NCBI GenBank assembly: GCA_043772175.1
Contig: JAYVGL010000167.1
Location: 1 to 50,487, forward strand
DNA: 50,487 nt
DNA from: Pyrinomonadaceae bacterium
Lineage (GTDB): Bacteria > Acidobacteriota > Blastocatellia > Pyrinomonadales > Pyrinomonadaceae
Direction of reading: 5' to 3'
Part shown: positions 1 through 26,167 of the stretch, in pieces
How positions within the stretch are numbered: position 1 is the stretch's first letter
Layout: every line of letters begins with the position of its first letter
Program-made: the position numbers and the translations under genes
Notes under the pieces: generated by a model
Seen by the model: only the letters and a program-made list of their open reading frames with translations
Databases searched by the model: none
Told to the model about the DNA's origin: nothing

Positions 1-366
1 CTGGCGGAAGACATCGGAAAAAAATTAGAAGTCGGGGCGCATCTGGCGGAGTTGCGGCGGACGAAAGCGGGCAAATTCGATATATCGAAAGCCGTCACGC
101 TCGCAGAATTGGAAATCATCGCGTCCGAAAATCGTGTGAGCGACGTTTTAGTTTCGATGAACGAAGCCGTTTCGCATCTGCCGCAGATTATCCTGGACGA
201 AAAGGAAATCGCCGACACAAAAAACGGCAAGCCGCGGCGATGTGAAAACGCCGCGCTCGAAGATCATCAAACGGTGCGAATGATTGACGAAGCGGACAAT
301 TTAATTGCCGTCGGTTTTTATAAAAGCGCGGAAAAATCCATCCAGCCGAAACTCGTTTTGGTGTAA
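1..366 (+). CDS. truB: tRNA pseudouridine(55) synthase TruB, C-terminal fragment (5' end lies outside the window)
   Basis: Frame 1 is open from base 1 (LAEDIGKKLEVGAHLAELRRTKAGKFDIS...). The PUA-like C-terminal region is typical of TruB. Stop TAA at 364-366. Confidence 0.8.
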   Translation: MAEDIGKKLEVGAHLAELRRTKAGKFDISKAVTLAELEIIASENRVSDVLVSMNEAVSHLPQIILDEKEIADTKNGKPRRCENAALEDHQTVRMIDEADNLIAVGFYKSAEKSIQPKLVLV

Positions 367-389
367 AATCAGCAGAGAGAGAATTTTTT

Positions 390-1385
390 ATGAACAAAAA
401 GAATCTGGCTTTGGGAATCGGCGGCGCATTGGGCGCAATCGTCGCGGTGAAAATGCTTTCGCGGGCGAAGACGGTCGCGTGGGAAACGGTTTCCGATAAA
501 ATCGAACACGCGGAGAATTCGCACTTCGTCGAAATTGACGGCGCGACGATTCATTATCAGGAATTCGGCGAACGAACCAACCCGACGCTACTTTTAATTC
601 ACGGCTACACGGCTTCGACTTACGTTTGGAAAACGGTCGCGCCGATGTTCGCGGCGCAGAAGTTTCACGTGGTTGCGGTTGATTTGGTCGGCTTCGGTTT
701 TTCAGATAAACCGACGTGGTTCGACTACACCATCGCCTCGCAAGCCCGCGTCATCGAGCGTTTGATGAACCGGCTCGGCATTGGGAAGGCGACGGTCGTC
801 GGGAGTTCTTACGGCGGAGCGGTGGCGGCGACGCTCGCTTTGGATTACGCGGAGCGCGTCGAAAAACTCGTGATGGTCGGGGCGGTGGCGAACGACGAAG
901 TTCTCGACAATCCGATTTTGAAGCTTGCTTCGGTTCCGATTCTCGGCGAAATTTTCACGCCGTTTATGATTGATTCAAAAGCGTTGGCAAAAACGCGGAT
1001 GAAGCGGACGCTCGCGCCGGAGAGTCAGCATTTAATTACCGACGAGCGCGTCGAAGCGGTTATTCGTCCGCTCAAAGCCAAAGACGCGCATCATTCCGTG
1101 CTGGCCTCGGCACGCAATTGGGACGCGAACCGCATCGGCGAAGACGCGCATTTAATCAACCAGCCGACGCTTCTGCTCTGGGGCGAAGACGACGAAATTA
1201 TTCCGCTTTACAACGGCGAAAATCTCTACGATGCCATCGTTCATTCGCGGCTCGTCGTTCTGAAAAACTGCGGGCATCTGCCGCCGGAGGAAAAACCCGA
1301 AAGATTCGTCGCGCTCGTCGGCGAATTTTGCCGCGACCGCAAAGGCATCGTCCACGCGGAAGCGAGCGAACGGCTCAGTGCCTGA
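390..1385 (+). CDS. alpha/beta-fold hydrolase
   Basis: HG motif (LIHGYTAS), nucleophile elbow GSSYG, and C-terminal NCGHLPPEE carrying the catalytic His. The length (331 aa) is typical of the fold. Confidence 0.9.
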   Translation: MNKKNLALGIGGALGAIVAVKMLSRAKTVAWETVSDKIEHAENSHFVEIDGATIHYQEFGERTNPTLLLIHGYTASTYVWKTVAPMFAAQKFHVVAVDLVGFGFSDKPTWFDYTIASQARVIERLMNRLGIGKATVVGSSYGGAVAATLALDYAERVEKLVMVGAVANDEVLDNPILKLASVPILGEIFTPFMIDSKALAKTRMKRTLAPESQHLITDERVEAVIRPLKAKDAHHSVLASARNWDANRIGEDAHLINQPTLLLWGEDDEIIPLYNGENLYDAIVHSRLVVLKNCGHLPPEEKPERFVALVGEFCRDRKGIVHAEASERLSA

Positions 1386-1475
1386 ATTTTTATTATTTTT
1401 TACAACTTAAACCGCGCGCCCGACTTCCAAAGTGCGGCTTAATAACCGCTCTCCCGCGCCTTTGGAGGAAAAATT

Positions 1476-1880
1476 ATGAAAACGATACTTTTAACTTTAA
1501 TTCTAACGCTTTTGTTCGGGAGTGCGGTGCTGGCGAACGGGCAAAAAACCGACGCGCCGCTTCAGGTTCGTGTCGGAAAACAGAAAAAATTTTCGCGCAG
1601 TAAAGTCAGCGTCAAATTCGTCTCCCTGGTTGAAGATTCGCGCTGTCCCGAAGGTGTCAACTGCGTCTGGGCGGGCAATGCGCGAATCACGGTGCAGATT
1701 ACCGAACCGGGCGGCGCGGGCGAAATCTTTGATATGAACACGAATCTCGGCGCAAAAGGCGCGACTTTCGCCGGCTACGCGGTTAATTTAACCAGCCTCA
1801 CCCCGACTCCGAAAGAAAACGTGCGAATCAACAAAAACGGCTACACGGCGACGTTTTCCATCGTGCGGATGACGCGGTAG
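1476..1880 (+). CDS. small exported protein of unknown function
   Basis: GGAGG lies 7 nt upstream of the ATG. Signal peptide MKTILLTLILTLLFGSAVLA. Confidence 0.7.
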   Translation: MKTILLTLILTLLFGSAVLANGQKTDAPLQVRVGKQKKFSRSKVSVKFVSLVEDSRCPEGVNCVWAGNARITVQITEPGGAGEIFDMNTNLGAKGATFAGYAVNLTSLTPTPKENVRINKNGYTATFSIVRMTR

Positions 1881-1983
1881 AAAATTTCGGCTTTTTTCGC
1901 CTATCTTCACAGCCGCAGTGAAGTATTAAAGTGTTCGACGAAAAGTGTTTCGGCGGTTGAGAAGTATAACTGACAATTTAAAA

Positions 1984-2847
1984 TCAGTAATTTGCTTTTA
2001 ATTCATCAACCATTTTAACCGCACCTTCGATGTCGCCTTTATAGACTATCTGCCCGTTTCGGTTGATGACAAAAGTCGTCGGATAACCTTTCACGCCAAA
2101 TTTTTCAGCTAAATCTTCGTCTGTCGTAACGACTACCGGAAAACCGTATCCCTCTTGACGAATATCGTCAAAGGCTTGATTCGGTTTATCTTCTTCAATC
2201 GGTTTATTAACGGCTAAAATCATTACGGACGAATCGTTTTTATATTTGTCGTAAACGCCTTGAACTTGCGGAAATTTCTCGAAACAAATTCCGCAACGTG
2301 TGAACCAAAAATCGAGTAAAACGATTTTATTTCTGAAATTCTCATCCGCGACGAAAATTTTTTGTTCGTCAAATGCTTCAAATTTTGTTGGCAAATTATA
2401 CGCCCGAACTTTTGCGGTATAAGTTCCATAGTTAATTCTATGAATCCAGTAATCCCAACCTTGAAAAAACATAAACACTACGAAGCAACTACTTAAGGAA
2501 AAAAACAGGATATTTTTCGGTAATTTATTTTTGTAGTAGAAGTAAGCAGAAATAACGCCTAAGCAATAGGTAATTACTACTGGTAAAGTGTAAGGATCAC
2601 CCTTCAAAAACGTGAAGATCGTATATAATTGAAGGGGAAACATTGTTCCGAAAATAATTGCTACAATTGAAATCACCGGCAGTTTTCTACTGAAAACTTT
2701 GAAAAAAAATAATGTGAGGTAAAAATAGCCGATAAATGAGAGTAAGGTAATAAAGTAAACTTTATTTGAAATAAACGGTATTGACAACGGCATTACCAAA
2801 GAAACTAAAAGTATTACAGCGAATGCTTCGAGGATGGCTTTATACAT
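1984..2847 (-). CDS. polytopic membrane protein fused to a TlpA/ResA-like thioredoxin-fold thiol-disulfide oxidoreductase
   Basis: Several N-terminal TM helices are followed by LLDFWFTRCGICFEKFP (CxxC = CGIC) and KGYPTTFVI (cis-Pro loop). ATG at 2847 (MYKAILEAF) is preferred over the longer track ORF. The gene is strongly AT-rich. Confidence 0.85.
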   Translation of the reverse strand: MYKAILEAFAVILLVSLVMPLSIPFISNKVYFITLLSFIGYFYLTLFFFKVFSRKLPVISIVAIIFGTMFPLQLYTIFTFLKGDPYTLPVVITYCLGVISAYFYYKNKLPKNILFFSLSSCFVVFMFFQGWDYWIHRINYGTYTAKVRAYNLPTKFEAFDEQKIFVADENFRNKIVLLDFWFTRCGICFEKFPQVQGVYDKYKNDSSVMILAVNKPIEEDKPNQAFDDIRQEGYGFPVVVTTDEDLAEKFGVKGYPTTFVINRNGQIVYKGDIEGAVKMVDELKANY

Positions 2848-2865
2848 ATAAAAATTTTTGAGGCG

Positions 2866-2893
2866 AAAAAGGCAGTAGAAATACTGCCTTTTT
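2866..2893 (-). terminator. hairpin terminator between the two low-GC island genes
   Basis: AAGGCAGTA (2869-2877) pairs with TACTGCCTT (2882-2890) around a GAAA loop. An A-run on one side and a T-run on the other make it usable on either strand. Confidence 0.7.
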
Positions 2894-2932
2894 CGAGTAA
2901 GTTTTCGTCGAATCGCAAATCCCAATTACTGA

Positions 2933-3938
2933 CTAACCGCACAAATAGTTACATCTTGTTGTGCCATATGGTCCGCAATCCCCAACAGGTGAACTCTGAC
3001 AACCATTCGGTGCACCGCAAGAAGGGTCTCCTTCACAATAAAAATTACAGTTGCAGACGCCAGCCCTTGGGTTCTCGGTAGTGACAGGTTCGTCTTTCAC
3101 GTATTTCTGAATTCCAAGCGACATAAAAACTGCGAATCCTTCCTCTTTAGTAAAAGCATTTAAAATGCTTGACAGCAAAAGTTCCTCAGCTTTGGATTCT
3201 TCTTCTTTTGTAAGATTCAAACGGGCGGTAAAAGTTTCAGGAGATAATGTTGTCAGCATCTCTAAAACAAACTCGTTTTGAAATTTTGCAAATTTTCCTG
3301 TAGCTAAATGATACGCCAACTGAGTTTTCCAGATGTTTACCCGATCATTTACAAACATCTCTTTGACAATCTTCCTTCTCGCTTTCATTCCATTCTTCAG
3401 CAAATCCTCATACTTCTGTAAGAGTGTCACTTCTTCATCTTTGCTTGTGTTCAAAGGCTCAACAAAATCGCCTGCCTCCTTGGACGGAAACAACCCGAAG
3501 GCTCTGTTTATCATCTCTAGTCCGCTTTGCTCATTGCGTTTTACTTTTTCAGGATCGGATTTCTCGTAAATATCAGCGGAAACTTTTGAGATTGCGTCTA
3601 AAACAAATTCTCGCTGCTCTTTTGTCATGTTCGGTCGCTTGATGAACTGTAAAGCCAGATTAACTCTTATAAAAGATGCTTTTTGTTCGTTAGATAGTTT
3701 TGAAAATGATGAGCGTCTTTCTTTTGCTGGTAAAGATGCCACTCTCACAAAGTCTCCATACGCCTCGTTGTTTACAGAGATGGATGAAGGTAAAACAAGT
3801 TTCCTGAAGCATTTCGATTGAGGTTGTTCAATTTTCGGAGAGTCTTGCTTTTGAGCAGAAACGGTTGTTGGAAATGTGCTTAAAAGCACGCCGACGGTAA
3901 AAAGCGCAAGTAACGCTAAGTTGTTTTTTTTTGTTCAT
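2933..3938 (-). CDS. exported protein with an 8-Cys C-terminal tail (bacteriocin-like candidate); reading frame broken at an A9 run after the start codon
   Basis: GGAGG lies 8 nt upstream of ATG 3938. With one A fewer the N-terminus reads MNKKNNLALLALFTVGVLLSTFPTTVSAQ, a signal peptide. The body ORF is 2933..3889. The last 40 aa are VCNCNFYCEGDPSCGAPNGCQSSPVGDCGPYGTTRCNYLCG. Confidence 0.6.
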
Positions 3939-4104
3939 TTAAGTTGCCTCCAGAATTTTAGATTGATTTTTGGTGTGAACGAAAATAAGGCGAAACCGTT
4001 GCAAATCGGAAATTTCCAATTCTTAGAAGTCGGCAAAGTTTTCACGAATTTTGTTTACAATCTGGTTTATACTCTTTTTTAAGCTGAATTTCAAGAAAAA
4101 TTTT

Positions 4105-5454
4105 ATGAGCAGAAAAAGCATTTTAGTCGTTGACGACGAGAAAAGTCAGCGCGAGATTTTGGAGATGATACTGTCGGGCGAAGGCTACGATGTCACGATG
4201 GCTTCGTCTGGGGAGGCGGCGATGAAGTTTGTCGCCGACCGGCATTTTGATCTGGTTTTGACTGATTTGAAAATGACGGGAATGAGCGGTCTGGATTTGC
4301 TGAAAGAGTTGACTGATTTCGATAAGTCTATTATCGTCCTGCTTTTAACGGCGCACGGGACGGTTGATTCCGCCGTTGACGCGCTGCGTTTGGGCGCGTT
4401 CGATTTTTTGCAGAAACCTTACGACCGCGACAAACTGCTCGAAACTATCTCACGCGCACTGAACAAACTTTCGGCACTCGATTCGGAAATCGTCTCCGAT
4501 TCGCCGGAGATGGATAAGGTGAAAAAACTGATCTTGAAGGTGGCGAAGTCGAACTCGACCGTTTTGATTCGCGGCGAATCGGGAACGGGCAAGGAATTAA
4601 TCGCCCGCGCCATTCATAAAAACTCGCTGCGGACGAGCGAAGTTTTTCAAGCCGTCAACTGCGCGGCGATCAACGAAAATCTGCTCGAAAGCGAACTTTT
4701 CGGACACGAAAAAGGAAGTTTTACGGGCGCGGTCGGCGAGAAAAAAGGTTTGTTTGAAATCGCCGACAACGGCACGCTTTTCCTTGACGAAATCGGCGAA
4801 CTCGATATTTCACTGCAAGCGAAAATTCTCCGCGCTTTGCAGGAAAAGCAAATTCGGCGGGTTGGCGGCATTCGTGAAATTGACGTTGACGTGCGCGTCG
4901 TTACGGCGACGAACCGCGATCTGCTGAAGATGTCGCAGGAAGGACGTTTCCGCGAAGATTTATATTATCGCCTGAACGTGCTTTCGATTGAGTTGCCCGC
5001 GCTGCGGGAGCGGCGTTCGGACGTTCCGGTGCTGATTGATTATTTTTTGGCGAAACACACACGCGGCACGAACCGGAAAGTCGCACTCGATAAAGATGCG
5101 CGGCGAATCTTGGAAAATTACGGTTATCCAGGCAACGTCCGCCAGCTCGAATCGGCACTCGAACGCGCCGTTCTATTGTGCGAAAACAACACGATCACGG
5201 CGGAAGATTTGCCGCCGGAGATGTCGCAGTCGGCGAGACCTTCGTCGGCAAATGATTTGTTCAAACTGCCCGCCGAAGGCATCAATTTTGAAGATGTCGA
5301 GCGCAGTTTGATAATGCAGGCGATGGAGCGAACCGATAATAACATCACGAAATCGGCGAAACTTTTGGGTTTGACGTTTCGGACTTTGCAATACCGATTG
5401 GAAAAATTCGGCTACAAGAAAGACGCGGGCGCGGAAGCGGAAGACGAGGCGTAA
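4105..5454 (+). CDS. sigma-54-dependent Fis-family response regulator (NtrC-like)
   Basis: Receiver domain (ILVVDDE ... LVLTDLKMTGMSG), AAA+ Walker A GESGTGKE, GAFTGA-type loop GSFTGA, Walker B LFLDEIGE, and C-terminal HTH NITKSAKLLGLTFRTLQYRL. ATG 4105 (MSRKSILVVDD) is preferred. Confidence 0.93.
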   Translation: MSRKSILVVDDEKSQREILEMILSGEGYDVTMASSGEAAMKFVADRHFDLVLTDLKMTGMSGLDLLKELTDFDKSIIVLLLTAHGTVDSAVDALRLGAFDFLQKPYDRDKLLETISRALNKLSALDSEIVSDSPEMDKVKKLILKVAKSNSTVLIRGESGTGKELIARAIHKNSLRTSEVFQAVNCAAINENLLESELFGHEKGSFTGAVGEKKGLFEIADNGTLFLDEIGELDISLQAKILRALQEKQIRRVGGIREIDVDVRVVTATNRDLLKMSQEGRFREDLYYRLNVLSIELPALRERRSDVPVLIDYFLAKHTRGTNRKVALDKDARRILENYGYPGNVRQLESALERAVLLCENNTITAEDLPPEMSQSARPSSANDLFKLPAEGINFEDVERSLIMQAMERTDNNITKSAKLLGLTFRTLQYRLEKFGYKKDAGAEAEDEA

Positions 5455-5487: not shown

Positions 5488-5736
5488 ATGTTGACGATTG
5501 AAGGGATTTATAAAGACGGCAAAATCGAGTTGCTCGAAACCGTGTCCGAGATGAAGCAGTCAAAAGTTTTGATAACTTTTATCGAGAACAGCGATGTTGA
5601 CTTACAAACTTTAGGCATTGGTCGGGAGGAAGCCGGGGATTTGCGCGAAAAGTTTGCGGCTTTTGAAGATTGGAACGATCCCGCGCTCGACGTTTACGAC
5701 GATTATGACAACGCCAAATCAGCCCTCGGCGAATAA
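5488..5736 (+). CDS. putative antitoxin (DUF104-like N-terminus)
   Basis: GAGGTGAG ribosome-binding site. The N-terminus IEGIYKDGKIELLE resembles the DUF104 antitoxin family. The C-terminus is acidic, and a MazF-like gene lies immediately downstream and overlaps. Confidence 0.65.
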   Translation: MLTIEGIYKDGKIELLETVSEMKQSKVLITFIENSDVDLQTLGIGREEAGDLREKFAAFEDWNDPALDVYDDYDNAKSALGE

Positions 5737-6079
5737 AATAGAACGCAGCAGTGTTGTATTGCTGCCGTTTCCGAATTCGGATTTGCGGACTGCTAAACTG
5801 CGCCCCGCTTTAGTCATTCAGGCGGACGGATTAGAAACCGGACTGGAGCAGATTATCTTGGCGATGATTAGCAGTAACTTGAGTCGCGCCGAACATCAAT
5901 CACGAATTCTAATTGAGACGAAAACAGAAGCGGGAAAACAAAGCGGACTGCTTTTCGACTCGGTGATAATGACCGGCAATTTGGCAACGGTCGCTTCGCC
6001 GAGAGTTACGAGAATTATCGGAAAACTAGAAGCGATGCGCGACGTTAACGACGCTCTGCGCCACACCCTTAAATTGTAA
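5705..6079 (+). CDS. PemK/MazF-family toxin (endoribonuclease type)
   Basis: SSVVLLPFPNSDLRTAKLRPALVI matches the MazF/PemK N-terminal beta-strand motif. The size is about 124 aa. ATG 5705 overlaps the upstream gene by 32 nt. Confidence 0.75.
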   Translation: MTTPNQPSANKIERSSVVLLPFPNSDLRTAKLRPALVIQADGLETGLEQIILAMISSNLSRAEHQSRILIETKTEAGKQSGLLFDSVIMTGNLATVASPRVTRIIGKLEAMRDVNDALRHTLKL

Positions 6080-9086: not shown

Positions 9087-9713
9087 ATGGAATGGTTTTC
9101 AACCTTGAGTTTGGCACTCGGCACAGCCTGGACTTCGGGCATCAATCTTTACGCGACCGTCACGGTTTTGGGCTTGCTGCAAAAGTTTAATCTGACGCAT
9201 TTGCCCGGCGGTTTGGATGTTTTGGATAATTGGTGGATTATCGGCATCGCCGGATTTCTCTACGCGGTCGAGTTTTTCGCCGATAAAATTCCTTACGTTG
9301 ATTCGATCTGGGATGTCATACACACTTTTATCCGCGTTCCGGCGGGCGCAATTGTCGCTTACGCGGCGACGAATCAAACCGACGCGGGCGTTCAGACGAT
9401 TGCCGCTCTGCTCGGCGGCGGGCTGGCGTTTTCATCGCACGGCACGAAAACGGCTTTGCGGATGGGCGCGAACCTTTCGCCCGAACCCGTCTCCAACTGG
9501 ATTTTATCAATCGTCGAGGACATCATCGCCTTTGCGGGAACGCTTCTCGCGGTTTTCGCGCCGGTTTTGATTGCAATTGTCTTGCTGATTTTCGCCGTTT
9601 TCTTCATCTGGTTTTTCCCGAAAGTCGTGCGCGGCGTAAGAAAATTATTCGACGGCATTCGCGCACTTTTTCGCGGCGAAAATTACCGCGAAGCTGCTCG
9701 CAGGTCGGTTTGA
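9087..9713 (+). CDS. DUF4126 membrane protein
   Basis: TSGINLYATVTVLGLL ... AVEFFADKIPYVDSIWD is typical of DUF4126, and the protein has several TM helices. Confidence 0.8.
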   Translation: MEWFSTLSLALGTAWTSGINLYATVTVLGLLQKFNLTHLPGGLDVLDNWWIIGIAGFLYAVEFFADKIPYVDSIWDVIHTFIRVPAGAIVAYAATNQTDAGVQTIAALLGGGLAFSSHGTKTALRMGANLSPEPVSNWILSIVEDIIAFAGTLLAVFAPVLIAIVLLIFAVFFIWFFPKVVRGVRKLFDGIRALFRGENYREAARRSV

Positions 9714-10005
9714 AGTTTGTATTAAAGATTGATGTTGTTTGACTAAGACGGTATTTCAGCGAGTCATACGACAATCAGCAAGCAAAGTGCAAACGCTCGT
9801 TGAAATTTTAATGGAATCAATTCGTAAAAATAATTTCGCCCCGTTTTGTGTTCTGATTCTTGTTTTCGCGCGCGCTCTGATCGAACTTCTATTGTTTTTC
9901 GTCTGACGTTTTGCCTGCTTTATTTTATGATACGATATTTTTAAGAAAGCATCACAAATGTATGTTAGCTGGCGAAATCGTCCGGGGAGAGATCAAAACG
10001 AACAG

Positions 10006-10206
10006 ATGAATTTAGAAAGAATTTTTCAAATTATAGCGGTAATTCTGATCGGAGTTGCCGCGTTTTTCTTGTGGAAAGGCAATAATGACGGCTTGTTTAT
10101 CGCGGCGGTCGTCGCGGCGGTGAGTTTTTTTCTGAGCATTCGGTTTCAAGTGAAAGAGCGTTTGGAACAGCGGAAGAAAGAACCAGCGGACGAGAGTAAA
10201 GCGTAG
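10006..10206 (+). CDS. small two-TM membrane protein
   Basis: MNLERIFQIIAVILIGVAAFFLW ... LFIAAVVAAVSFFLSI, followed by a charged tail. No family recognised. Confidence 0.5.
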   Translation: MNLERIFQIIAVILIGVAAFFLWKGNNDGLFIAAVVAAVSFFLSIRFQVKERLEQRKKEPADESKA

Positions 10207-12682: not shown

Positions 12683-14611
12683 ATGAGAAAAAAGACTAGT
12701 ATTATTTTAATTATCTTGTGTTGCGCTTTGGGCGTTTCCGCGCAGATGTCGCGGAAACCTTCGCCGACTCGTGAACCGGAAGGCGCGATGTTGAAAAAGC
12801 CGGATTCGGAAAAACGATTCGTGCCGAAAATCGCGTCGCGGAAGGAATTCGATAAGATGGCGCGGACGTATCATCAGAATACGCCGTATGCTTTGCCGCA
12901 CGCGATGTTTATTATTGACCGCCGTTTTAAAAACAAAATTTATTTCGTTAACTCGCAAAAATACCGTTTTCACAAAGATTTCCTGCTCGCAAATTATCTG
13001 GTCGCTCGCGGCGAAGACGTTTTTACGCCGATTTACATCAATCAAAATCGCCGCTTTATCGTCGGGACGATTGCGTTTCAGAAGCCGATTGAGAGGTTTA
13101 CGTTTGAATTGTGGGAAGGCGATCTGGCTTCGCCCGAATTGATAAAACTGACTTACGACACGATCAACGCGGCGTTTTTTACGGCGGTCGCATATAAACC
13201 GAACTCGATCCGGCAGGATGAAGCGTCGGTAAAACTCAGCATCAGCCGCGTTTCGGCGGACGAAATTCAGAGCAACCAGGAATATCTCGCCCTGAACACG
13301 GGCAAAGCCGTCGGGCGCGTTCACATCATCGAAAAACTCGACGACACGGTGGAAATCGGCGACAACGAGATTTTGATTTTGAAAGAATTGCCGATTAATC
13401 TGCCGCAGGTGCGCGGCATTATCATCGCCAAACCGTCAACGCCTTTGTCGCACATCAACATTCTGGCGCGCGGTTGGGGAATTCCGAATGTTTACATCAA
13501 AGATGCCGACAAACTTTTCAAAGAATTAGACACCTACGTGATCGAATTCGACGCGACGCTGACCGATTACAAATATAAACGCGCCGATTTGGAAACGGTG
13601 AAAAAACAATTCGTTGACCCGGAACAAGCCGTCGCGCCGTCGGATTTGAAAGTAACGAAACTCACTTCGATTCGTGAAATGCGGGCGCGGGACAGCATCG
13701 CTTTCGGCGGAAAATCGGCGAATCTGGGCGAGATGATTAACGCGAAAAATCCGAACATCACGATTCCCGAAGGTTTTACCGTGCCGTTTTACTGGTATGA
13801 TAAATTTATGCGCGAGAACGGTTTGAACGACAAAATTGACGTTCTGATGGACGATTTGGATTTCGTTCACAACCCGCGCATCCGTCGTCAAAAACTGGAA
13901 GAATTTCGCAGCGAGATAAACAACGCCAAATTTGACGAGCAGTTAAAAGCGGAAATTATTAACAGGTGGAAAACCGAACTCGGCGGACAGGGCGTTTTCG
14001 TCCGCAGTTCGTCGAACGCCGAAGATTTGCCGAATTTTTCCGGCGCGGGACTTTATTCAAGCGTGGCGAACGTCAAAACCGACGAAAAAGTGATCGAAGC
14101 GGTGAAAAAAGTTTGGTCGTCTCTGTGGAATTTCGAGGCGTATGAAGCCCGCGTCAGAAATTACGTTAATCAGCGCGAAGTTTTTATGTCGGCGTTGATT
14201 CAGGTCGGCTTAAATATGGACAGCGGCGGCGTTTTGATTACCAAAGACCCGTTCGACCCGGAAAATAAAAACGCCGTTTACATCAGTGCGGTTTGGGGAC
14301 ACAACGAAAAAGTAACGGCGAACGCATTCGTTCCCGAACAGGTTTTATACAATCCGAAATCGAACGCCGTGCAGATTCTGACGCTTTCACAGCAGAATTC
14401 GGTTTTGAAATTCGGCGAGAAAGGCGATTTAATAGAAACCGATGAAAAGTTTGAACGCCGTGTTCTTGATGATAAAAACGTCCGTGAACTCGTCAAAACT
14501 GCCGGACAGATTAAGAGAATTTTCGGCGGAAAAAAAGAACAGGATATTGAATGGGGAATTATGGGCGGCAAAGTCTATATTCTTCAATCGCGCCCTTACA
14601 TTGAGAAATAA
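12683..14611 (+). CDS. exported PEP/pyruvate-binding (PPDK_N ATP-grasp) protein with the swivelling His domain placed N-terminally
   Basis: Signal peptide MRKKTSIILIILCCALGVSAQ. His-domain motif STPLSHINILARGWGIPNV. ATP-grasp motif FGGKSANLGEM, with VFVRSSSNAEDL further downstream. Confidence 0.8.
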   Translation: MRKKTSIILIILCCALGVSAQMSRKPSPTREPEGAMLKKPDSEKRFVPKIASRKEFDKMARTYHQNTPYALPHAMFIIDRRFKNKIYFVNSQKYRFHKDFLLANYLVARGEDVFTPIYINQNRRFIVGTIAFQKPIERFTFELWEGDLASPELIKLTYDTINAAFFTAVAYKPNSIRQDEASVKLSISRVSADEIQSNQEYLALNTGKAVGRVHIIEKLDDTVEIGDNEILILKELPINLPQVRGIIIAKPSTPLSHINILARGWGIPNVYIKDADKLFKELDTYVIEFDATLTDYKYKRADLETVKKQFVDPEQAVAPSDLKVTKLTSIREMRARDSIAFGGKSANLGEMINAKNPNITIPEGFTVPFYWYDKFMRENGLNDKIDVLMDDLDFVHNPRIRRQKLEEFRSEINNAKFDEQLKAEIINRWKTELGGQGVFVRSSSNAEDLPNFSGAGLYSSVANVKTDEKVIEAVKKVWSSLWNFEAYEARVRNYVNQREVFMSALIQVGLNMDSGGVLITKDPFDPENKNAVYISAVWGHNEKVTANAFVPEQVLYNPKSNAVQILTLSQQNSVLKFGEKGDLIETDEKFERRVLDDKNVRELVKTAGQIKRIFGGKKEQDIEWGIMGGKVYILQSRPYIEK

Positions 14612-14633
14612 TTTAATAGAAAATGAGTTTATA

Positions 14634-15320
14634 ATGAGCATATTTGGGAAAAAGAAAATGAACGAACAAGAATACAACAGCGAAGAAGTGAACGAAGAGG
14701 CAATCGAAGGCGAAGTTTTCTTCAACGACCAACGCCGTTTCGACGGCGACGGCGAACGAATCAAAGACGACCCGAAAGCCGCGAACGTCAAATCGCCGGA
14801 AGTCGTCAAACTTGAGAAAGAATTAAAAGATGAACGCCTCCGCCGCGAAGCCGCCGAAGCGAAACTCGTCGGCGTGCAGACGAAATTCGACGAAGTAAAA
14901 GCGCAGATGGAACGCGAAACCCAGGAGATGCGCCAGCGTCTGATGAAAACTCTGGAAGACCGCGCCAAACAGGGGCAATTTAATTTTCTGACGACGCTGC
15001 TGCCGGTTTTAGATAATTTGAATCTCGGCATCAAGGCGAGCGAAACCGATTCGTCATTCGAGCATTTATTATCAGGCGTAAAAGGCACAGCCAGAAGTTT
15101 TGAACAGGCGTTAATCAGCGTCGGTGTCGAACCGATTGCGGCAGTCGGCGAAGTTTTCAACCCGGAAATGCACGAAGCCGTCGAGATGGTCGAAACGAGC
15201 GCAGAAAACGACGACAAAATCGTCGGCGAATTCTCACGCGGCTACAAATTCGGCGACAAATTACTGCGCCCGTCGCGTGTTCAGGTCGGCAAAGCGATTT
15301 CCAAATCGGTCGGCGAGTAA
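14634..15320 (+). CDS. grpE: nucleotide exchange factor GrpE
   Basis: Long coiled coil, then the C-terminal beta domain GVEPIAAVGEVFNPEMHEAVEMVE ... LRPSRVQV. Confidence 0.9.
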   Translation: MSIFGKKKMNEQEYNSEEVNEEAIEGEVFFNDQRRFDGDGERIKDDPKAANVKSPEVVKLEKELKDERLRREAAEAKLVGVQTKFDEVKAQMERETQEMRQRLMKTLEDRAKQGQFNFLTTLLPVLDNLNLGIKASETDSSFEHLLSGVKGTARSFEQALISVGVEPIAAVGEVFNPEMHEAVEMVETSAENDDKIVGEFSRGYKFGDKLLRPSRVQVGKAISKSVGE

Positions 15321-19402: not shown

Positions 19403-21349
19403 ATGAGCGAAGAAGTTGTGATGCCGCAGATGGGCGAATCAATTACCGAAGGAACGGTTTCCAAATGGCTGAAAGCCGTCGGCGATAAAGTCGAAAAAGA
19501 CGAAAATATACTAGAGATTTCGACCGATAAGGTTGACGCGGAAGTGCCGTCGCCGATTGCCGGAATTTTATTGGAAATTCGCGCTCAGGAAGGCGAAACG
19601 GTCGAAGTCGGTGTTGCCGTCGGCATCGTCGGCGAAGAAGGCGAACAACCGGCGGGCGGCGGCGGGCAGTCGTCGAACGGCAATCAGTCTGCGCCGCCGA
19701 AAGTCGAGGAAATTCAGGCGGTTACCGCCGAACTCGAAGAAACGAAAGCTACGCCGGTTGCCGAACAAATCAAAGCGGTCGAAGATGTCGCTGAAACGTC
19801 TGCGCCGTCCGTCAATTCGACCGACGCGGCGAACGCGGAAGAAGTCGTAATGCCGCAGATGGGCGAGTCAATTACCGAGGGAACGGTTTCCAAATGGTTG
19901 AAAGCGGTTGGCGATGCGGTTGAAAAAGACGAGCCTTTATTAGAAATCTCGACCGACAAAGTTGATGCGGAAGTGCCGTCGCCGATTGCCGGAACGCTGC
20001 TCGAAATTCGCGTCAATGAAGGCGAAACGGTCGAAGTCGGCGCGATTGTCGGTTTGGTCGGCAGTTCGGTCGGCGGTCAGCAGATAGCGAACGGCAGTCA
20101 GCATTCGGCGGTCGCGCAAAAACAGGGGGTCGAGCAAACCGCGCAGGCGACGGGCGCGGAGACTGCGCCGCCGGAGACGGCAAAATCAGCCGCTGCCGCC
20201 GCCGGAAATGTTCAGGAAACCGAAGGCAGAAGTTACGATTATCAGCGTCCCGACGCGGTTGAAGACGTGCAGAAATCTTCCAACGGGCAAACGGCGACTA
20301 GCGGACAAGCGGCGACCAACGGGAAATCGAACGGCGAGATGTCGCTCGAAGATTTGCGGAAAACGAAATCTTCGCCGCTGGTTCGCAACATCGCCAAGGA
20401 ACATAGTGTTGATATTTCGCGCATCGAAGGTTCGGGAATGAGCGGGCGCGTCACGAAAAAAGATATTCTGAATTTCATCGAATCGGGCGCGGCAATTCGT
20501 CCGCAGGATTTGCTGGCGAACGTCGGAACGGCGAAAGCGTTCATCGCGCCGTCCGTCCCGCAGACAACGCCGCAATCTGCGCCGCAAATGCAAACACAAA
20601 CCGCGCCGAAAACCGCTTTTACTGCACCGCAAGTTGCATCGGCGGTCGGCGACAGAATCGAACCGATGTCGGTGATGCGAAAGAAAATCGCCGAACATAT
20701 GATTTTCTCTAAACAGACTTCGGCGCACGTCGCCAGCGTTTACGAAATTGATATGACGAACGTAACGAAGTTCCGCAATAAAAACAAAGTGGAGTTTCAG
20801 AATCGTTACGGCACGAAGCTGTCATATATGCCGTTTATTTTTCAAGCGGTAACGAACGCCCTGCGAAAGTTCCCGATAGTCAACTCGCAGATTTCGGGCG
20901 AGCAGATTATTTACAAAGGCGATGTCAATTTAGGAATAGCGGTCGCGCTCGACTGGGGCTTGATTGTGCCGGTCATCAAACGCGCCGATACGCTTTCCTT
21001 GAGTGGTTTAGCTTTGACGGCGAACGACTTAGCCGACCGTGCGCGAACGAAAAAGCTGATGCCGGACGAAGTTTCCGGCGGAACTTTTACGATTACGAAT
21101 CCGGGCGTTTTCGGGGGACTTTTCGGAACGCCGATCATCAATCAGCCGCAGGTCGCTATTTTATGTGTCGGGACGATTGAAAAACGTCCGAAAGTCATCA
21201 CCACTGTCGAAGGTGATGATGTGGTTGCGATTCGTTCGATGGCGTATTTCGCTTTGACGTATGACCACCGCGTCGTTGACGGCGCGGATGCCGAAAAATT
21301 TCTTTCTTTTATGAAGGAGTATCTCGAAACGACGCAGTTTAATTTTTAA
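19403..21349 (+). CDS. dihydrolipoamide acyltransferase (E2 of a 2-oxo acid dehydrogenase complex) with two lipoyl domains
   Basis: Two lipoyl domains (EISTDKVDAEVPSP, twice), a peripheral subunit-binding domain (SPLVRNIAKEHSVDISRIEGSGMSGRVTKKD) and the catalytic motif DHRVVDG. Confidence 0.92.
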   Translation: MSEEVVMPQMGESITEGTVSKWLKAVGDKVEKDENILEISTDKVDAEVPSPIAGILLEIRAQEGETVEVGVAVGIVGEEGEQPAGGGGQSSNGNQSAPPKVEEIQAVTAELEETKATPVAEQIKAVEDVAETSAPSVNSTDAANAEEVVMPQMGESITEGTVSKWLKAVGDAVEKDEPLLEISTDKVDAEVPSPIAGTLLEIRVNEGETVEVGAIVGLVGSSVGGQQIANGSQHSAVAQKQGVEQTAQATGAETAPPETAKSAAAAAGNVQETEGRSYDYQRPDAVEDVQKSSNGQTATSGQAATNGKSNGEMSLEDLRKTKSSPLVRNIAKEHSVDISRIEGSGMSGRVTKKDILNFIESGAAIRPQDLLANVGTAKAFIAPSVPQTTPQSAPQMQTQTAPKTAFTAPQVASAVGDRIEPMSVMRKKIAEHMIFSKQTSAHVASVYEIDMTNVTKFRNKNKVEFQNRYGTKLSYMPFIFQAVTNALRKFPIVNSQISGEQIIYKGDVNLGIAVALDWGLIVPVIKRADTLSLSGLALTANDLADRARTKKLMPDEVSGGTFTITNPGVFGGLFGTPIINQPQVAILCVGTIEKRPKVITTVEGDDVVAIRSMAYFALTYDHRVVDGADAEKFLSFMKEYLETTQFNF

Positions 21350-21371
21350 GCAAACGGCTTTTGAATCGAAT

Positions 21372-21400
21372 GCGGACAGTTTTGTAGAAAGACTGTCCGC
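21372..21400 (+). terminator. possible terminator hairpin after the E2 gene
   Basis: GCGGACAGT (21372-21380) pairs with ACTGTCCGC (21392-21400). No T-run follows, so the call is weak. Confidence 0.4.
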
Positions 21401-21729
21401 AAAGAAAACGCTTTGTCGTCCAAAATCATTTACGGCTAACACTTCAAATTTTATTTTTCCTAATTAACCTCAAACATAACGAGCTTTAGCTGAAGCGCAG
21501 CGTTGCGAATCTGATCTGCGGCACAATTATTGAGTGTGAAGACTTCTATTGAAAATCTGATTAAAAGTGTGCGATTATTCAACAGTGATGAAAACGTGAG
21601 TTTTGCTATCATCATCGAAATCAATTGAGACTGATAGTTAAGACAACTTTTTCGACAACCCCTTCAGTTTGAAAAACGTCAAAAATCAGCGGTATAAATC
21701 CAATTTTAATTGCAAGGAGTCAAAAATAT

Positions 21730-22710
21730 ATGTTGAAAAAATTACCGGCAATGGTGTTTGCGTTGTTGTTAGGCGCAACCGGCATCTTGGCACAGGATGC
21801 TCAAACCCGCAGTTTGACCAGCGGACAAAAATACAAAATTAAAGGCGTAGTGGTTTCTAAGGACGACAACAGTTTCACGGTTCGTGACACGGTCGGCGTG
21901 GACACCAACGTCGTGCTGAGTTCCAACACCAGCATCAAAACTAAAGGCGGATTTTTCGGCGGCGGCGACGCGGTGGCGACTAACGGCATCGTGCGCGGTT
22001 TGAATTTGGAAGTTGAAGGACGCGGCGACGGTGCGGGTGCTTTGGCGGCAACGAAAGTTCGTTTCGGCAAAGACGATTTCCGCGTCGCACAGTCAATTGA
22101 CAGCCGCGTATCACCGGCGGAAGAACGCCTAACGCAATCCGAACAAAACGCCCAGCGCGTTTCGGGACAGATTGACGAACTGATGGCTATTTCCAATGCG
22201 GCTCGCGGCGGCGCAAAAGCGGCGCAGGATATGGCGGACGCGGCAATCGCGGGCGTTAACGCGACCAACCAGAGAATTTCGTCGCTCGACGATTACGTTG
22301 TTCAGTCAACCTCGACGGTGAATTTCAAGGTGAGCAGCGCGGTTTTGTCCGATGAAGCGAAGGCTAATTTGGATCAAGTGGCGCAGACGGCGATGACGAT
22401 GAAGGGTTACACTATCGAAATCACCGGTTTTGCTTCGTCCGACGGCGATGTCGAGAAAAACAAAACATTGAGCCAACGCCGCGCTCAAGCTGTGATTGAC
22501 TATTTGGTTGAAACGCACAATGTTCCGCTTCGTCGAATCGGAACGTCCTACGGTTTTGGTGAACTTCAAGCGGTTGCCGATAATACGACTCTTGAAGGAC
22601 GCAATCAAAATCGCCGCGTCGAAGTAAAATTGCTGGCGAGTCGCGGTATGAACCAGAACGTGGAAGTCAGAAAAGATTCGACTACTGAACCGACCACCAA
22701 CGACCAGTAA
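21730..22710 (+). CDS. exported OmpA-family protein
   Basis: AAGGAG ribosome-binding site and a signal peptide. C-terminal OmpA domain: ITGFASSDGDVEKNKTLSQRRAQAV ... NRRVEVKL. Confidence 0.88.
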   Translation: MLKKLPAMVFALLLGATGILAQDAQTRSLTSGQKYKIKGVVVSKDDNSFTVRDTVGVDTNVVLSSNTSIKTKGGFFGGGDAVATNGIVRGLNLEVEGRGDGAGALAATKVRFGKDDFRVAQSIDSRVSPAEERLTQSEQNAQRVSGQIDELMAISNAARGGAKAAQDMADAAIAGVNATNQRISSLDDYVVQSTSTVNFKVSSAVLSDEAKANLDQVAQTAMTMKGYTIEITGFASSDGDVEKNKTLSQRRAQAVIDYLVETHNVPLRRIGTSYGFGELQAVADNTTLEGRNQNRRVEVKLLASRGMNQNVEVRKDSTTEPTTNDQ

Positions 22711-25592: not shown

Positions 25593-25820
25593 TTACGCCG
25601 CAATTTTCAAGCCTTTGCCCTGATTGTGCAAAGCCACTATTTGATTTTTCCGTAAGGCAAACATCGCGTATGTCTGTCCTTCGTCATCGGAAAATTCAAT
25701 TTCAAAAACATCCGGCGCAAGAATTTCAACGACCGTGCCGACTTCGCCCTCTTTTAAATTACGCTCCGGTAGATCTTCTAACAAAGCCACCGTATCAAGC
25801 AGTTCAATTTTATTTTGCAT
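25593..25820 (-). CDS. DUF4926 protein
   Basis: LLDTVALLEDLPERNLKEGEVGTVVEILAPDVFEIEFSDDEGQTYA matches my recollection of the DUF4926 pattern. Confidence 0.7.
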   Translation of the reverse strand: MQNKIELLDTVALLEDLPERNLKEGEVGTVVEILAPDVFEIEFSDDEGQTYAMFALRKNQIVALHNQGKGLKIAA

Positions 25821-25845
25821 TTTATTTTCCTTCTTTCAAAACATA

Positions 25846-26166
25846 TCAAGTTGTCAATCGCGGAAAGTCTTCCATGTGCAGAACAATCCAACCGCTGCGA
25901 ACTTTTGCTTCACCAATTTCGGTTATTAAATGAAAGTCAACCGTATAGCGTTGTCCGAACAAATCAAGTTCATCTAATTCTGCTTCAGAGTCATTAATGA
26001 TTTTAAGCAAAATACCTTGCAGTTCTTCGGCGTTTTCAGCCTTTATTCCAAGCGCGGAAGCAAAGACTCGCGCTTTGTGACGACCTTTCGGGCTTTCAAA
26101 GTTTAGCGAATAATCACGCAGTTTCCGCAGATCAACAAAAGCATTTTCCGCATTCGGCAAAATCAT
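25846..26166 (-). CDS. DUF6883 protein
   Basis: VDLRKLRDYSLNFESPKGRHKARVFASALG resembles DUF6883. It is paired with DUF4926, as is often annotated. Confidence 0.6.
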   Translation of the reverse strand: MILPNAENAFVDLRKLRDYSLNFESPKGRHKARVFASALGIKAENAEELQGILLKIINDSEAELDELDLFGQRYTVDFHLITEIGEAKVRSGWIVLHMEDFPRLTT

Positions 26167-26167
26167 T

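Follow-up and report, generated by a model that had tools for sequence, protein, structure and literature searches.

A low-GC cassette of Pyrinomonadaceae pairs a fulvocin C-related precursor with a slippery start and a membrane-tethered thioredoxin: a probable toxin and folding-partner pair

Contig JAYVGL010000167.1 of a Pyrinomonadaceae bacterium, analysed here over 50,487 nucleotides (the window), carries near one end a low-GC block with two minus-strand genes: gene 1, which encodes an exported protein ending in a cysteine-rich tail, and gene 2, which encodes a membrane protein fused to a thioredoxin fold. The locus raises the question of what these two genes do together and why they stand apart from their surroundings in composition. 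Gene 1 belongs to the fulvocin C-related bacteriocin family, is found paired with gene 2 in related genomes, diverges in step with it, carries a polymorphic homopolymer tract just after its start codon, and is under purifying selection. The explanation that we favour, with moderate confidence for the whole of it, is that positions 1984-4100 hold an old two-gene cassette, clade-wide in Pyrinomonadaceae-type soil Acidobacteria, which would encode a toxin precursor and a dedicated oxidative-folding partner, its expression gated by slippage. The block itself is placed as follows.

1901..4200, no strand: low-GC block with the cassette and its promoter region; GC 32-40% against a window mean of 49.4%, a contrast that recurs in 13 related loci.

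A scan of GC content in 400-nt windows over the 50-kb window (mean 49.4%, standard deviation 5.0%) identified the block as the sole long stretch below 40% GC, with 36.2% at 2001-3000 and 39.6% at 3001-4000, and 48-52% in the flanks. GC at third codon positions (GC3) is 0.36 in gene 2 and 0.37 in gene 1, against 0.62-0.68 in the neighbouring genes for a hydrolase, a 134-residue protein and a response regulator. An earlier note on this DNA, made from the letters alone, had described a low-GC island with GC-normal flanks, A/T-ending codons in both genes, two minus-strand genes and no others in the block, and no adjacent protease, exporter or radical-SAM gene; each of these observations was borne out. 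Five more short patches fall below 40% GC in windows of the same size (9701-10100, 14301-14700, 21301-21800, 25601-26200 and 27001-27500), all far smaller than the cassette block.

Gene 1 and its parts are placed as follows.

2933..3938, minus strand: gene 1, fulvocin C-related precursor; the start codon (3936-3938) and a 333-codon open reading frame (ORF; 2933-3934, stop included) lie in different frames.
3122..3766, minus strand: two tandem helical modules of ~105 residues each (3455-3766 and 3122-3439), seen in the two stretches matched by NF033852 and in the AlphaFold2 (AF2) model.
2936..3058, minus strand: 41-residue C-terminal tail with 8 Cys (VCNCNFYCEGDPSCGAPNGCQSSPVGDCGPYGTTRCNYLCG), delimited by Cys conservation, the match to the hidden Markov model and pairwise alignments to mature fulvocin C.

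The NCBIfam model NF033852, "bacteriocin fulvocin C-related protein", matches gene 1 at 76.8 bits (E = 3e-21) against a curated cut-off of 35 bits, which confirms the earlier guess of a relationship to fulvocin C. The match aligns residues 171-317 with positions 1-149 of the 150-position profile, and a second, weaker stretch lies upstream; Pfam has no match. A search of 5.8 billion proteins returned 129 relatives with 40-81% identity, all the named ones from Pyrinomonadaceae/Acidobacteriota and some already bearing the NCBIfam name. The Bacteroidota, with which the earlier note had associated the larger proteins of this family, are absent from the named homologues, and an origin in that phylum was rejected on this ground; the 856 family members found by a profile search of 1.84 billion cluster representatives carry no taxonomy, so that the wider family is not covered by this statement. 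Full-length homologues start with MNKKNN and have a typical Sec signal peptide; in gene 1, the pro-region between signal peptide and tail is ~250 residues long.

NF033852 also matches distant family members, in which the module repeat of the helical body is plain, and in protein P0408 a single helical module plus the tail accounts for the whole 150-position model. The AF2 model of gene 1 (predicted local distance difference test, pLDDT, 86.8; predicted template-modelling score, pTM, 0.85) consists of 14 helices and a small beta-rich tail. Searches of the PDB found neither a known fold nor a solved relative: the best Foldseek match has E = 0.32 with a template-modelling score (TM-score) of at most 0.2, and the sequence search gave nothing below E = 0.09. 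In distant representative P0356 (583 residues), two helical modules and the Cys tail are followed by a ~240-residue Cys- and Gly/Asp-rich extension, so the knot can be internal to a larger secreted protein.

The count of eight cysteines at the C-terminal end and one elsewhere, made by the earlier note, holds: eight lie in the last 41 residues and one close to the N-terminus. All eight tail cysteines are invariant in an alignment of 16 sequences; in an alignment of 71, this holds for six of them, the other two occur in at least 90% of the sequences, and the N-terminal cysteine is nearly invariant. The linker ahead of the tail varies in length, with insertions of up to ~45 residues.

Fulvocin C itself, from Myxococcus fulvus, was reportedly sequenced by Tsai and Hirsch in 1981, together with the assignment of its four disulfides. 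What we take to be the mature sequence (45 residues) gives an alignment with 57% identity (E = 9e-14) to the tail of P0403, a distant member of the family. This alignment, with the same presumed sequence, begins two residues ahead of the first cysteine, which would fit release of the tail from a larger precursor. On these comparisons, the predicted link between the tail of gene 1 and fulvocin C runs through the family profile. The two share an eight-Cys C-terminal region with the same pattern of spacing. They differ in that fulvocin C has been characterised as a 45-residue mature peptide only, whereas gene 1 has two modules, an extra N-terminal cysteine, a dedicated thioredoxin partner and a slippery start. 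Fulvocins are listed among the few known ribosomal peptides of myxobacteria (PMC8708641, which also cites the 1981 paper).

A paralogous fulvocin-related subfamily of higher GC, of the P0366 type, occurs in Pyrinomonadaceae as well (L030:5001-6442, L031:2131-3572 and L032:5001-6418; L numbers denote related loci). There, the gene is followed by an overlapping gene for a ~112-residue protein with three transmembrane (TM) segments and then by a DUF4062 gene, with no thioredoxin neighbour; one such genome has an insertion sequence (rve/HTH_Tnp_1) upstream. Homology of the three-TM protein to the membrane domain of gene 2 was considered and rejected (hhalign probability 0.2%).

Gene 2 combines two domains in one chain.

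1984..2847, minus strand: gene 2, 287 residues, with an N-terminal five-helix membrane domain (~2428-2847) and a ResA/TlpA-like thioredoxin-fold domain (~1987-2415).
2284..2295, minus strand: CGIC active site of gene 2, inside the conserved motif WxTxCGxCFxKFP.

The C-terminal 140 residues form the thioredoxin fold and the N-terminal 140 the five membrane helices, as the earlier note had supposed when it described a polytopic membrane domain fused to a periplasmic thioredoxin with a CGIC site. Pfam families Redoxin, AhpC-TSA and Thioredoxin_8 match above their cut-offs at 1e-11 to 1e-12. The scores of the NCBIfam models stay below theirs: 60.4 against 170 for ResA, 52.4 against 210 for StoA, 37.2 against 123 for DsbE and 23.5 against 230 for TlpA. 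By these profiles, gene 2 is a relative of the TlpA/ResA/DsbE oxidoreductases and a member of no named subfamily. Its AF2 model (pLDDT 91) has six helix elements over five hydrophobic segments, followed by the thioredoxin fold. Foldseek matches cover the thioredoxin domain only, with ResA, DsbE and SdbA at target TM-scores of 0.75-0.83 (ResA: E = 2e-8, target TM-score 0.79), while the membrane domain has neither a Pfam match nor a fold match in the PDB. All the named ones among 253 homologues come from Pyrinomonadaceae. In 38 homologues, the tryptophan, both cysteines, the glycine, both phenylalanines, the lysine and the proline of WxTxCGxCFxKFP are invariant, the threonine is kept in at least 90%, and the cis-proline motif YPT is conserved as well; the thioredoxin domain is the best-conserved part of the protein. 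A T8 run at 2702-2709 (codons L-F-F-F) lies in the second membrane helix.

The two genes are inherited as a pair. In 13 related Acidobacteriota/Pyrinomonadaceae loci whose fetched sequence includes the divergent regulator gene, the order of regulator, divergent gene 1 and then gene 2 is kept without exception, down to 38% identity of gene 1, and gene 2 follows gene 1 wherever the contig reaches far enough. Relatives whose proteins are 38-81% identical thus carry the pair at the same place. Over 66 pairs of loci, mean protein distances are 0.14 for the regulator, 0.43 for gene 2 and 0.47 for gene 1; the distances of gene 1 and gene 2 correlate with r = 0.70 (partial r = 0.68 given the regulator), and those of gene 1 and the regulator with r = 0.23. 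This co-divergence, decoupled from the regulator, indicates that the cassette changes as one unit, by divergence or by exchange, while its locus is conserved. Tandem cassettes occur in L007, L009 and L013, and a second thioredoxin gene in L004. In L007 (3726-4579), a second thioredoxin copy is split over two frames, through real decay or poor assembly.

The compositional contrast is itself a shared trait. Averaged over the 13 loci, the regulator has a GC3 of 0.60, gene 1 of 0.36 and gene 2 of 0.37, and the GC3 of the cassette genes tracks that of the regulator (r = 0.85 and 0.87) at a constant offset. Synonymous divergence (dS) between loci is 0.8-1.6, at or near saturation in most pairs. Such divergence together with a constant offset argues that the contrast is maintained, and leaves no trace of recent transfer.

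A hairpin separates the two genes.

2864..2895, no strand given: intergenic hairpin with a 14-bp stem and a GGCAGTA core, followed by a minus-strand T run; terminator or attenuator between gene 1 and gene 2.

The terminator-like hairpin of the earlier note is real. A stable hairpin follows the stop codon of gene 1 in 12 of the 13 loci; eight of these have the same sequence, and the stem is a different one in L006, L008, L011 and L012. It probably sets a high ratio of precursor to enzyme.

At the start of gene 1, three elements lie close together.

3947..3951, minus strand: GGAGG Shine-Dalgarno sequence, 8 nt ahead of the ATG at 3936-3938; its GAG is invariant in the alignment of intergenic regions.
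3924..3932, minus strand: A9 slippery run at codons 3-5, one A more than the in-frame A8 of relatives.
3854..3938, minus strand: signal-peptide coding region, which gives MNKKNNLALLALFTVGVLLSTFPTTVSA only if the A run is corrected by -1; homologues keep the A-Q cleavage context without exception.

Positions 2933..3938 had been taken for one continuous gene with a Shine-Dalgarno site and a signal peptide. The interval is 1006 nt long, which is not divisible by three, and the frame that begins at ATG 3938 reads MNKKKQLSV and stops after 36 codons; the gene is not a single ORF, being thrown out of frame by the A9 run. The Shine-Dalgarno site stood, and the signal peptide is in frame only with one A removed. 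The 333-codon ORF occupies the +1 frame; GTG 3889, the first canonical start in it, lacks a ribosome-binding site and would cost most of the signal peptide. Dropping one A yields MNKKNNLALLALFTVGVLLSTFPTTVSA|QK, the start of full-length homologues, and a -1 slip at A9 in the RNA would restore MNKKNN and 329 further codons. A9 at 3924-3932 is the sole homopolymer of at least nine A/T (or at least eight G/C) in the 50-kb window. Two public proteins, P0002 (231 residues) and P0241 (271 residues), are calls of this same gene (2933-3889), both from an internal Met and without a signal peptide.

The tract differs between relatives as follows.

A8, in frame: L001, L002/3, L010, L012.
A9, +1, out of frame: the window, L006, L008, L011, L021, L022-24 (three samples), L025, L026 (four samples).
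A10, +1 in its own context: L014.
A7, -1: L016.
A9 after TT, in frame: L027.
A7CAACAAC, +1: L028/29.
Interrupted codons with no long run, in frame: L004, L007, L009, L015.
Perfect (ACAA)15.2 repeat, in frame: L013 (5966-6026), in the N-region of the signal peptide (MHKQTNKQTNKQTN...).

Ten of the eleven out-of-frame alleles are +1. The closest contrast is between L027 (in frame) and L028 (out of frame), which are 96.1% identical over 1311 nt with a lone gap, located in the tract. In-frame and out-of-frame alleles interleave on the protein tree, so that at least four changes are needed, and the sister lineages of A9 alleles have an in-frame A8 or no run. Among 120 cluster representatives, ~45-49 (~40%) are called without a signal peptide, 25 of them from one shared internal Met start. 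In many bacteria, transcriptional slippage becomes significant once a run reaches nine bases, and such slippage can restore ORFs of this kind in RNA (PMC1088944). Since an A9 allele gives a full-length product only after a one-base slip, the window copy of gene 1 reads as low or off but alive.

From these observations, a sequence of events can be proposed. The precursor would be exported by the Sec pathway; the tethered oxidoreductase would then form or shuffle the four disulfides of the tail; and the knotted tail would act as, or be cleaved off as, a diffusible antibacterial peptide, like fulvocin C. Toxicity, cleavage of the tail, the redox direction of gene 2 and its role as a partner are all things that we infer. 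For expression, A8 alleles, being in frame, would be fully expressed, and slippage in DNA would move lineages between A8 and A9. From an A9 allele, the exported full-length protein would require a slip of one base, be it a heritable change of the DNA (A9 to A8) or an event in some of the transcripts or ribosomes; whether DNA, RNA or the ribosome is the level at which slippage acts is likewise put forward as conjecture. We propose that A9 may be tolerated, or even favoured, because slippage of RNA polymerase or the ribosome still gives some product. The tetranucleotide repeat of L013 argues that hypermutability at this site is itself selected.

Several known systems resemble parts of this scheme. 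The bacteroidetocin (class IIf) clusters of Bacteroidales encode a Cys-containing peptide toxin, a five-TM protein, a thiol oxidoreductase and an ABC exporter, in a region whose GC is lower than that of the host; both accessory genes are required for activity and neither confers immunity (PMC6671954). The likeness extends to a Gram-negative producer, a Cys-containing secreted peptide, a five-TM protein with a thiol oxidoreductase, and low GC. The differences are that the five-TM protein and the oxidoreductase are separate there and fused in gene 2 (the five-TM likeness being by description), and that a 15-residue GG leader with a C39-ABC exporter takes the place of the Sec signal and ~250-residue pro-region found here with no transporter. 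The fusion of the five-helix domain with an oxidoreductase in gene 2 suggests that the two act together.

EntV of Enterococcus faecalis needs a thioredoxin-like enzyme, DsbA, and the protease GelE, which releases the active C-terminal peptide (PMC6606811). It resembles gene 1 in being a Sec-type secreted precursor with an active C-terminal part and a thioredoxin-family disulfide catalyst. It differs in its Gram-positive host and single disulfide, whereas the catalyst here forms one protein with a polytopic membrane domain and is the genetic partner of the precursor; and a release protease is known there (GelE), whereas none is encoded near the cassette.

The membrane-anchored thiol-disulfide oxidoreductases of the ResA/TlpA/CcmG type and SdbA of Streptococcus gordonii, among which the best structural matches to gene 2 are found, share with it the thioredoxin fold, the CxxC motif and the cis-proline. 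The classical members have a single membrane anchor and serve cytochrome maturation, unlike gene 2 with its five-helix domain without structural match. SdbA is said to show that this fold can act as an oxidase.

For the tract, the closest parallels are contingency loci and the slippage genes with runs of nine A or T, in which a homopolymer or tetranucleotide repeat close behind the start codon has different lengths in different relatives and so shifts an otherwise intact ORF in or out of frame (PMC1088944; PMC3711429). Those cases come mostly from host-associated pathogens, insertion sequences and endosymbionts, unlike the bacteriocin-family precursor of a soil acidobacterium described here.

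Several observations weigh against a toxin precursor with an oxidative-folding partner. Within the family, activity has been characterised for fulvocin C alone, and the sequence that we take to be fulvocin C aligns weakly with the gene 1 tail of the window (E = 0.005). No protease or outer-membrane export route is encoded nearby, and the paralogous fulvocin-related subfamily found in these bacteria does without a thioredoxin partner. Reduction is the classical activity of ResA/TlpA-type proteins, and an oxidase or isomerase role of gene 2 is an assumption. The two cysteines in the membrane helices of gene 2 are not conserved in the 38 homologues; with no conserved Cys pair, the membrane domain is by its sequence not a DsbB- or VKOR-like re-oxidase. 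Lastly, an exact look-up of reconstructed in-frame versions of nine out-of-frame alleles found none in a collection of 15 billion proteins, most of these alleles being known from 1-4 samples.

Gene 2 may instead be an immunity determinant, its reductase or membrane domain inactivating or blocking incoming toxin, with general periplasmic machinery folding the precursor. This alternative we consider unlikely. Toxin-immunity pairs show co-divergence of the kind seen for gene 1 and gene 2, L004 has one precursor gene followed by two thioredoxin genes in the manner of an orphan immunity gene, TlpA/ResA proteins are typically reductants, and the paralogous subfamily has its translationally coupled ~112-residue three-TM protein, classical for an immunity protein, in the same position. 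However, this three-TM protein has no detectable homology to the membrane domain of gene 2, and the strong conservation of the thioredoxin domain within gene 2 fits a catalyst better than a specificity determinant. In the tested analogue, moreover, the five-TM protein and the thiol oxidoreductase gave no protection and both were needed for production (PMC6671954). On balance, we favour oxidative folding over immunity as the likely role of gene 2.

It is also conceivable, but quite improbable, that the product is no toxin and that the cassette encodes a secreted Cys-rich signal, structural or metal-binding protein tied to the neighbouring two-component system. The large helical domain, conserved in polar residues and without a fold match, is more than a simple leader needs, and the nearly invariant extra cysteine near the N-terminus is a further point for such a role. 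The cassette, moreover, always lies beside the NtrC-type regulator, in relatives with a histidine kinase as well. The features that bear on this association are the following.

4105..5454, plus strand: NtrC-type sigma-54 response regulator, divergent from the cassette; conserved neighbour that marks the insertion site.
4066..4094, minus strand: candidate sigma-70-like promoter TTGAAA-17-TATAAA for gene 1, from conserved columns in 14 intergenic regions; it abuts the regulator start codon.

The 14 intergenic regions share a conserved TTGnnA-17-TATAAA beside the regulator start codon, which a simple promoter scan did not report, and none conserves a -24/-12 sigma-54 motif (GG-N10-GC) upstream of gene 1. 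Sigma-54 control of the cassette by its neighbour was rejected accordingly, the adjacency being better explained by the insertion history set out below. The regulator is, as far as sequence can tell, a landmark, and evidence for it as the controller of the cassette is nil. Against a non-toxin role stand, besides these two points, the nature of the sole characterised relative of the tail, which is a bacteriocin (PMC8708641), and the fast cassette-wide divergence at a conserved locus with slippery gating, typical of antagonism or surface-variation genes. A conserved RNA structure in the 5' leader was also considered and found unconvincing (RNAalifold, -0.17 kcal/mol), and Rfam has no matches in the window.

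The insertion history can be read from relatives, where direct repeats of the 5' end of the regulator gene (45-208 nt, 90-100% identical) lie just past gene 2 in L002, L008, L011, L012 and L013. The repeat copies are placed as follows.

L002: 7953-8021.
L008: 7922-8017.
L011: 6916-7025.
L012: 2232-2278 and 4412-4433.
L013: 7919-8125 and 10045-10089.

Three repeat copies surround the two cassettes of L013. The distal copy in L008 abuts a convergent histidine-kinase gene, and a kinase adjoins the distal repeat wherever the locus reaches past it (L002, L008). The simplest reading of these sequences is that the cassette was inserted long ago between the histidine kinase and the sigma-54 response regulator, duplicating the 5' end of the regulator gene; the repeats would then permit tandem duplication and cassette exchange. 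L012 has an extra insert of ~700 nt between regulator and cassette.

The window has kept its synteny beyond the regulator, where PemK-like, DUF4126 and glycosyltransferase genes lie. On the far side, the kinase, the penicillin-binding-protein gene and the repeat have been lost: no copy of the regulator 5' end was found beside the cassette in the window, unlike in relatives, and the kinase is absent from all 50 kb, which leaves the regulator locally an orphan. In relatives L002, L004, L025 and L026, gene 2 is followed by a HAMP-HisKA kinase and a penicillin-binding transpeptidase; window positions 1-1983 have instead an exported protein of 134 residues without family match and an alpha/beta hydrolase. 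Two small overlapping ORFs follow right after the regulator at 5488-6079. The second of them (5618-6079) matches over 5714-6076, with 66% identity, a PemK-family toxin that L002 has at this position, and by sequence the two are probably a toxin-antitoxin pair.

We regard it as very unlikely that the A9 frameshift is meaningless, that is, a sequencing or assembly error or a fresh inactivating mutation, with gene 1 either normal or dead. Homopolymers are error-prone, and the look-up of in-frame versions found no identical allele. Two further loci carry additional disruptions, L014 (5997-6970) with A10 and a mid-gene frameshift and L016 with A7 and several stops, and may be pseudogenes showing real decay or poor assemblies. 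Yet eight or more distinct alleles share this A9, and they come from independent assemblies of JGI, Logan and NCBI; one was recovered from three samples, and the contig of another from four. The nine signal-less representatives that were examined all proved to be tract frameshifts. The downstream ORF is intact in all A9 alleles (329-376 codons), and the ratio of non-synonymous to synonymous substitution rates (dN/dS) between A9 alleles is 0.12-0.18 at dS ~1, which argues that they are not decaying pseudogenes. The (ACAA)15.2 of L013 is a second, independent type of repeat at the very site of the window's A9. A scan of metagenome DNA for tract variants returned five stretches: three unrelated, the L001 contig and one A7 allele.

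It is highly improbable that the block came into this genome recently, as a foreign island whose donor was a low-GC organism such as one of the Bacteroidota. For such an origin speak the GC3 contrast with the flanks (0.36-0.37 against ~0.62), the insertion look with its flanking direct repeats in relatives, and the differing far flank of the window without kinase and penicillin-binding-protein gene. Against it, all relatives examined carry the pair at this locus, dS is at or near saturation in most pairs with a GC3 offset that is constant and follows the GC3 of the host, and the named homologues of both genes are all from Acidobacteriota. The earlier note had asked whether the island is an insertion missing from relatives: the compositional contrast is there, while the relatives have the same pair in the same place, and the recent insertion into this genome that it had entertained gives way to an ancient one, marked by the direct repeats of relatives.

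Returning to the toxin precursor and its folding partner, a fuller version may be offered tentatively. The locus could be a contingency-type antagonism cassette, in which export of a fulvocin-family toxin precursor is switched or throttled by slippage at an A tract near the start, or in one lineage at a tetranucleotide repeat, a self-contained new type of disulfide machine with five helices and a thioredoxin domain fuses the two bacteroidetocin accessory proteins, and the whole diversifies and duplicates by recombination at the regulator repeats.

In the literature searched, we found no papers on the fulvocin C-related family. With this locus, the family acquires a precursor of defined architecture, a partner enzyme that looks obligate and a model of processing that can be tested. 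That a five-TM domain and a thiol oxidoreductase are fused here is a Rosetta-stone hint that the two unexplained accessory proteins of bacteroidetocin act together. The start-proximal tract has a practical consequence, in that ~40% of public family members are annotated as truncated proteins without a signal peptide, and a family named for a toxin is systematically mis-called. The same literature contained no report of phase variation in Acidobacteria, a phylum that abounds in soil and is poorly cultured. Should the tract prove to be a switch, this would be one of few documented instances, and possibly the first in the phylum, in which a competition factor is gated stochastically and heritably.

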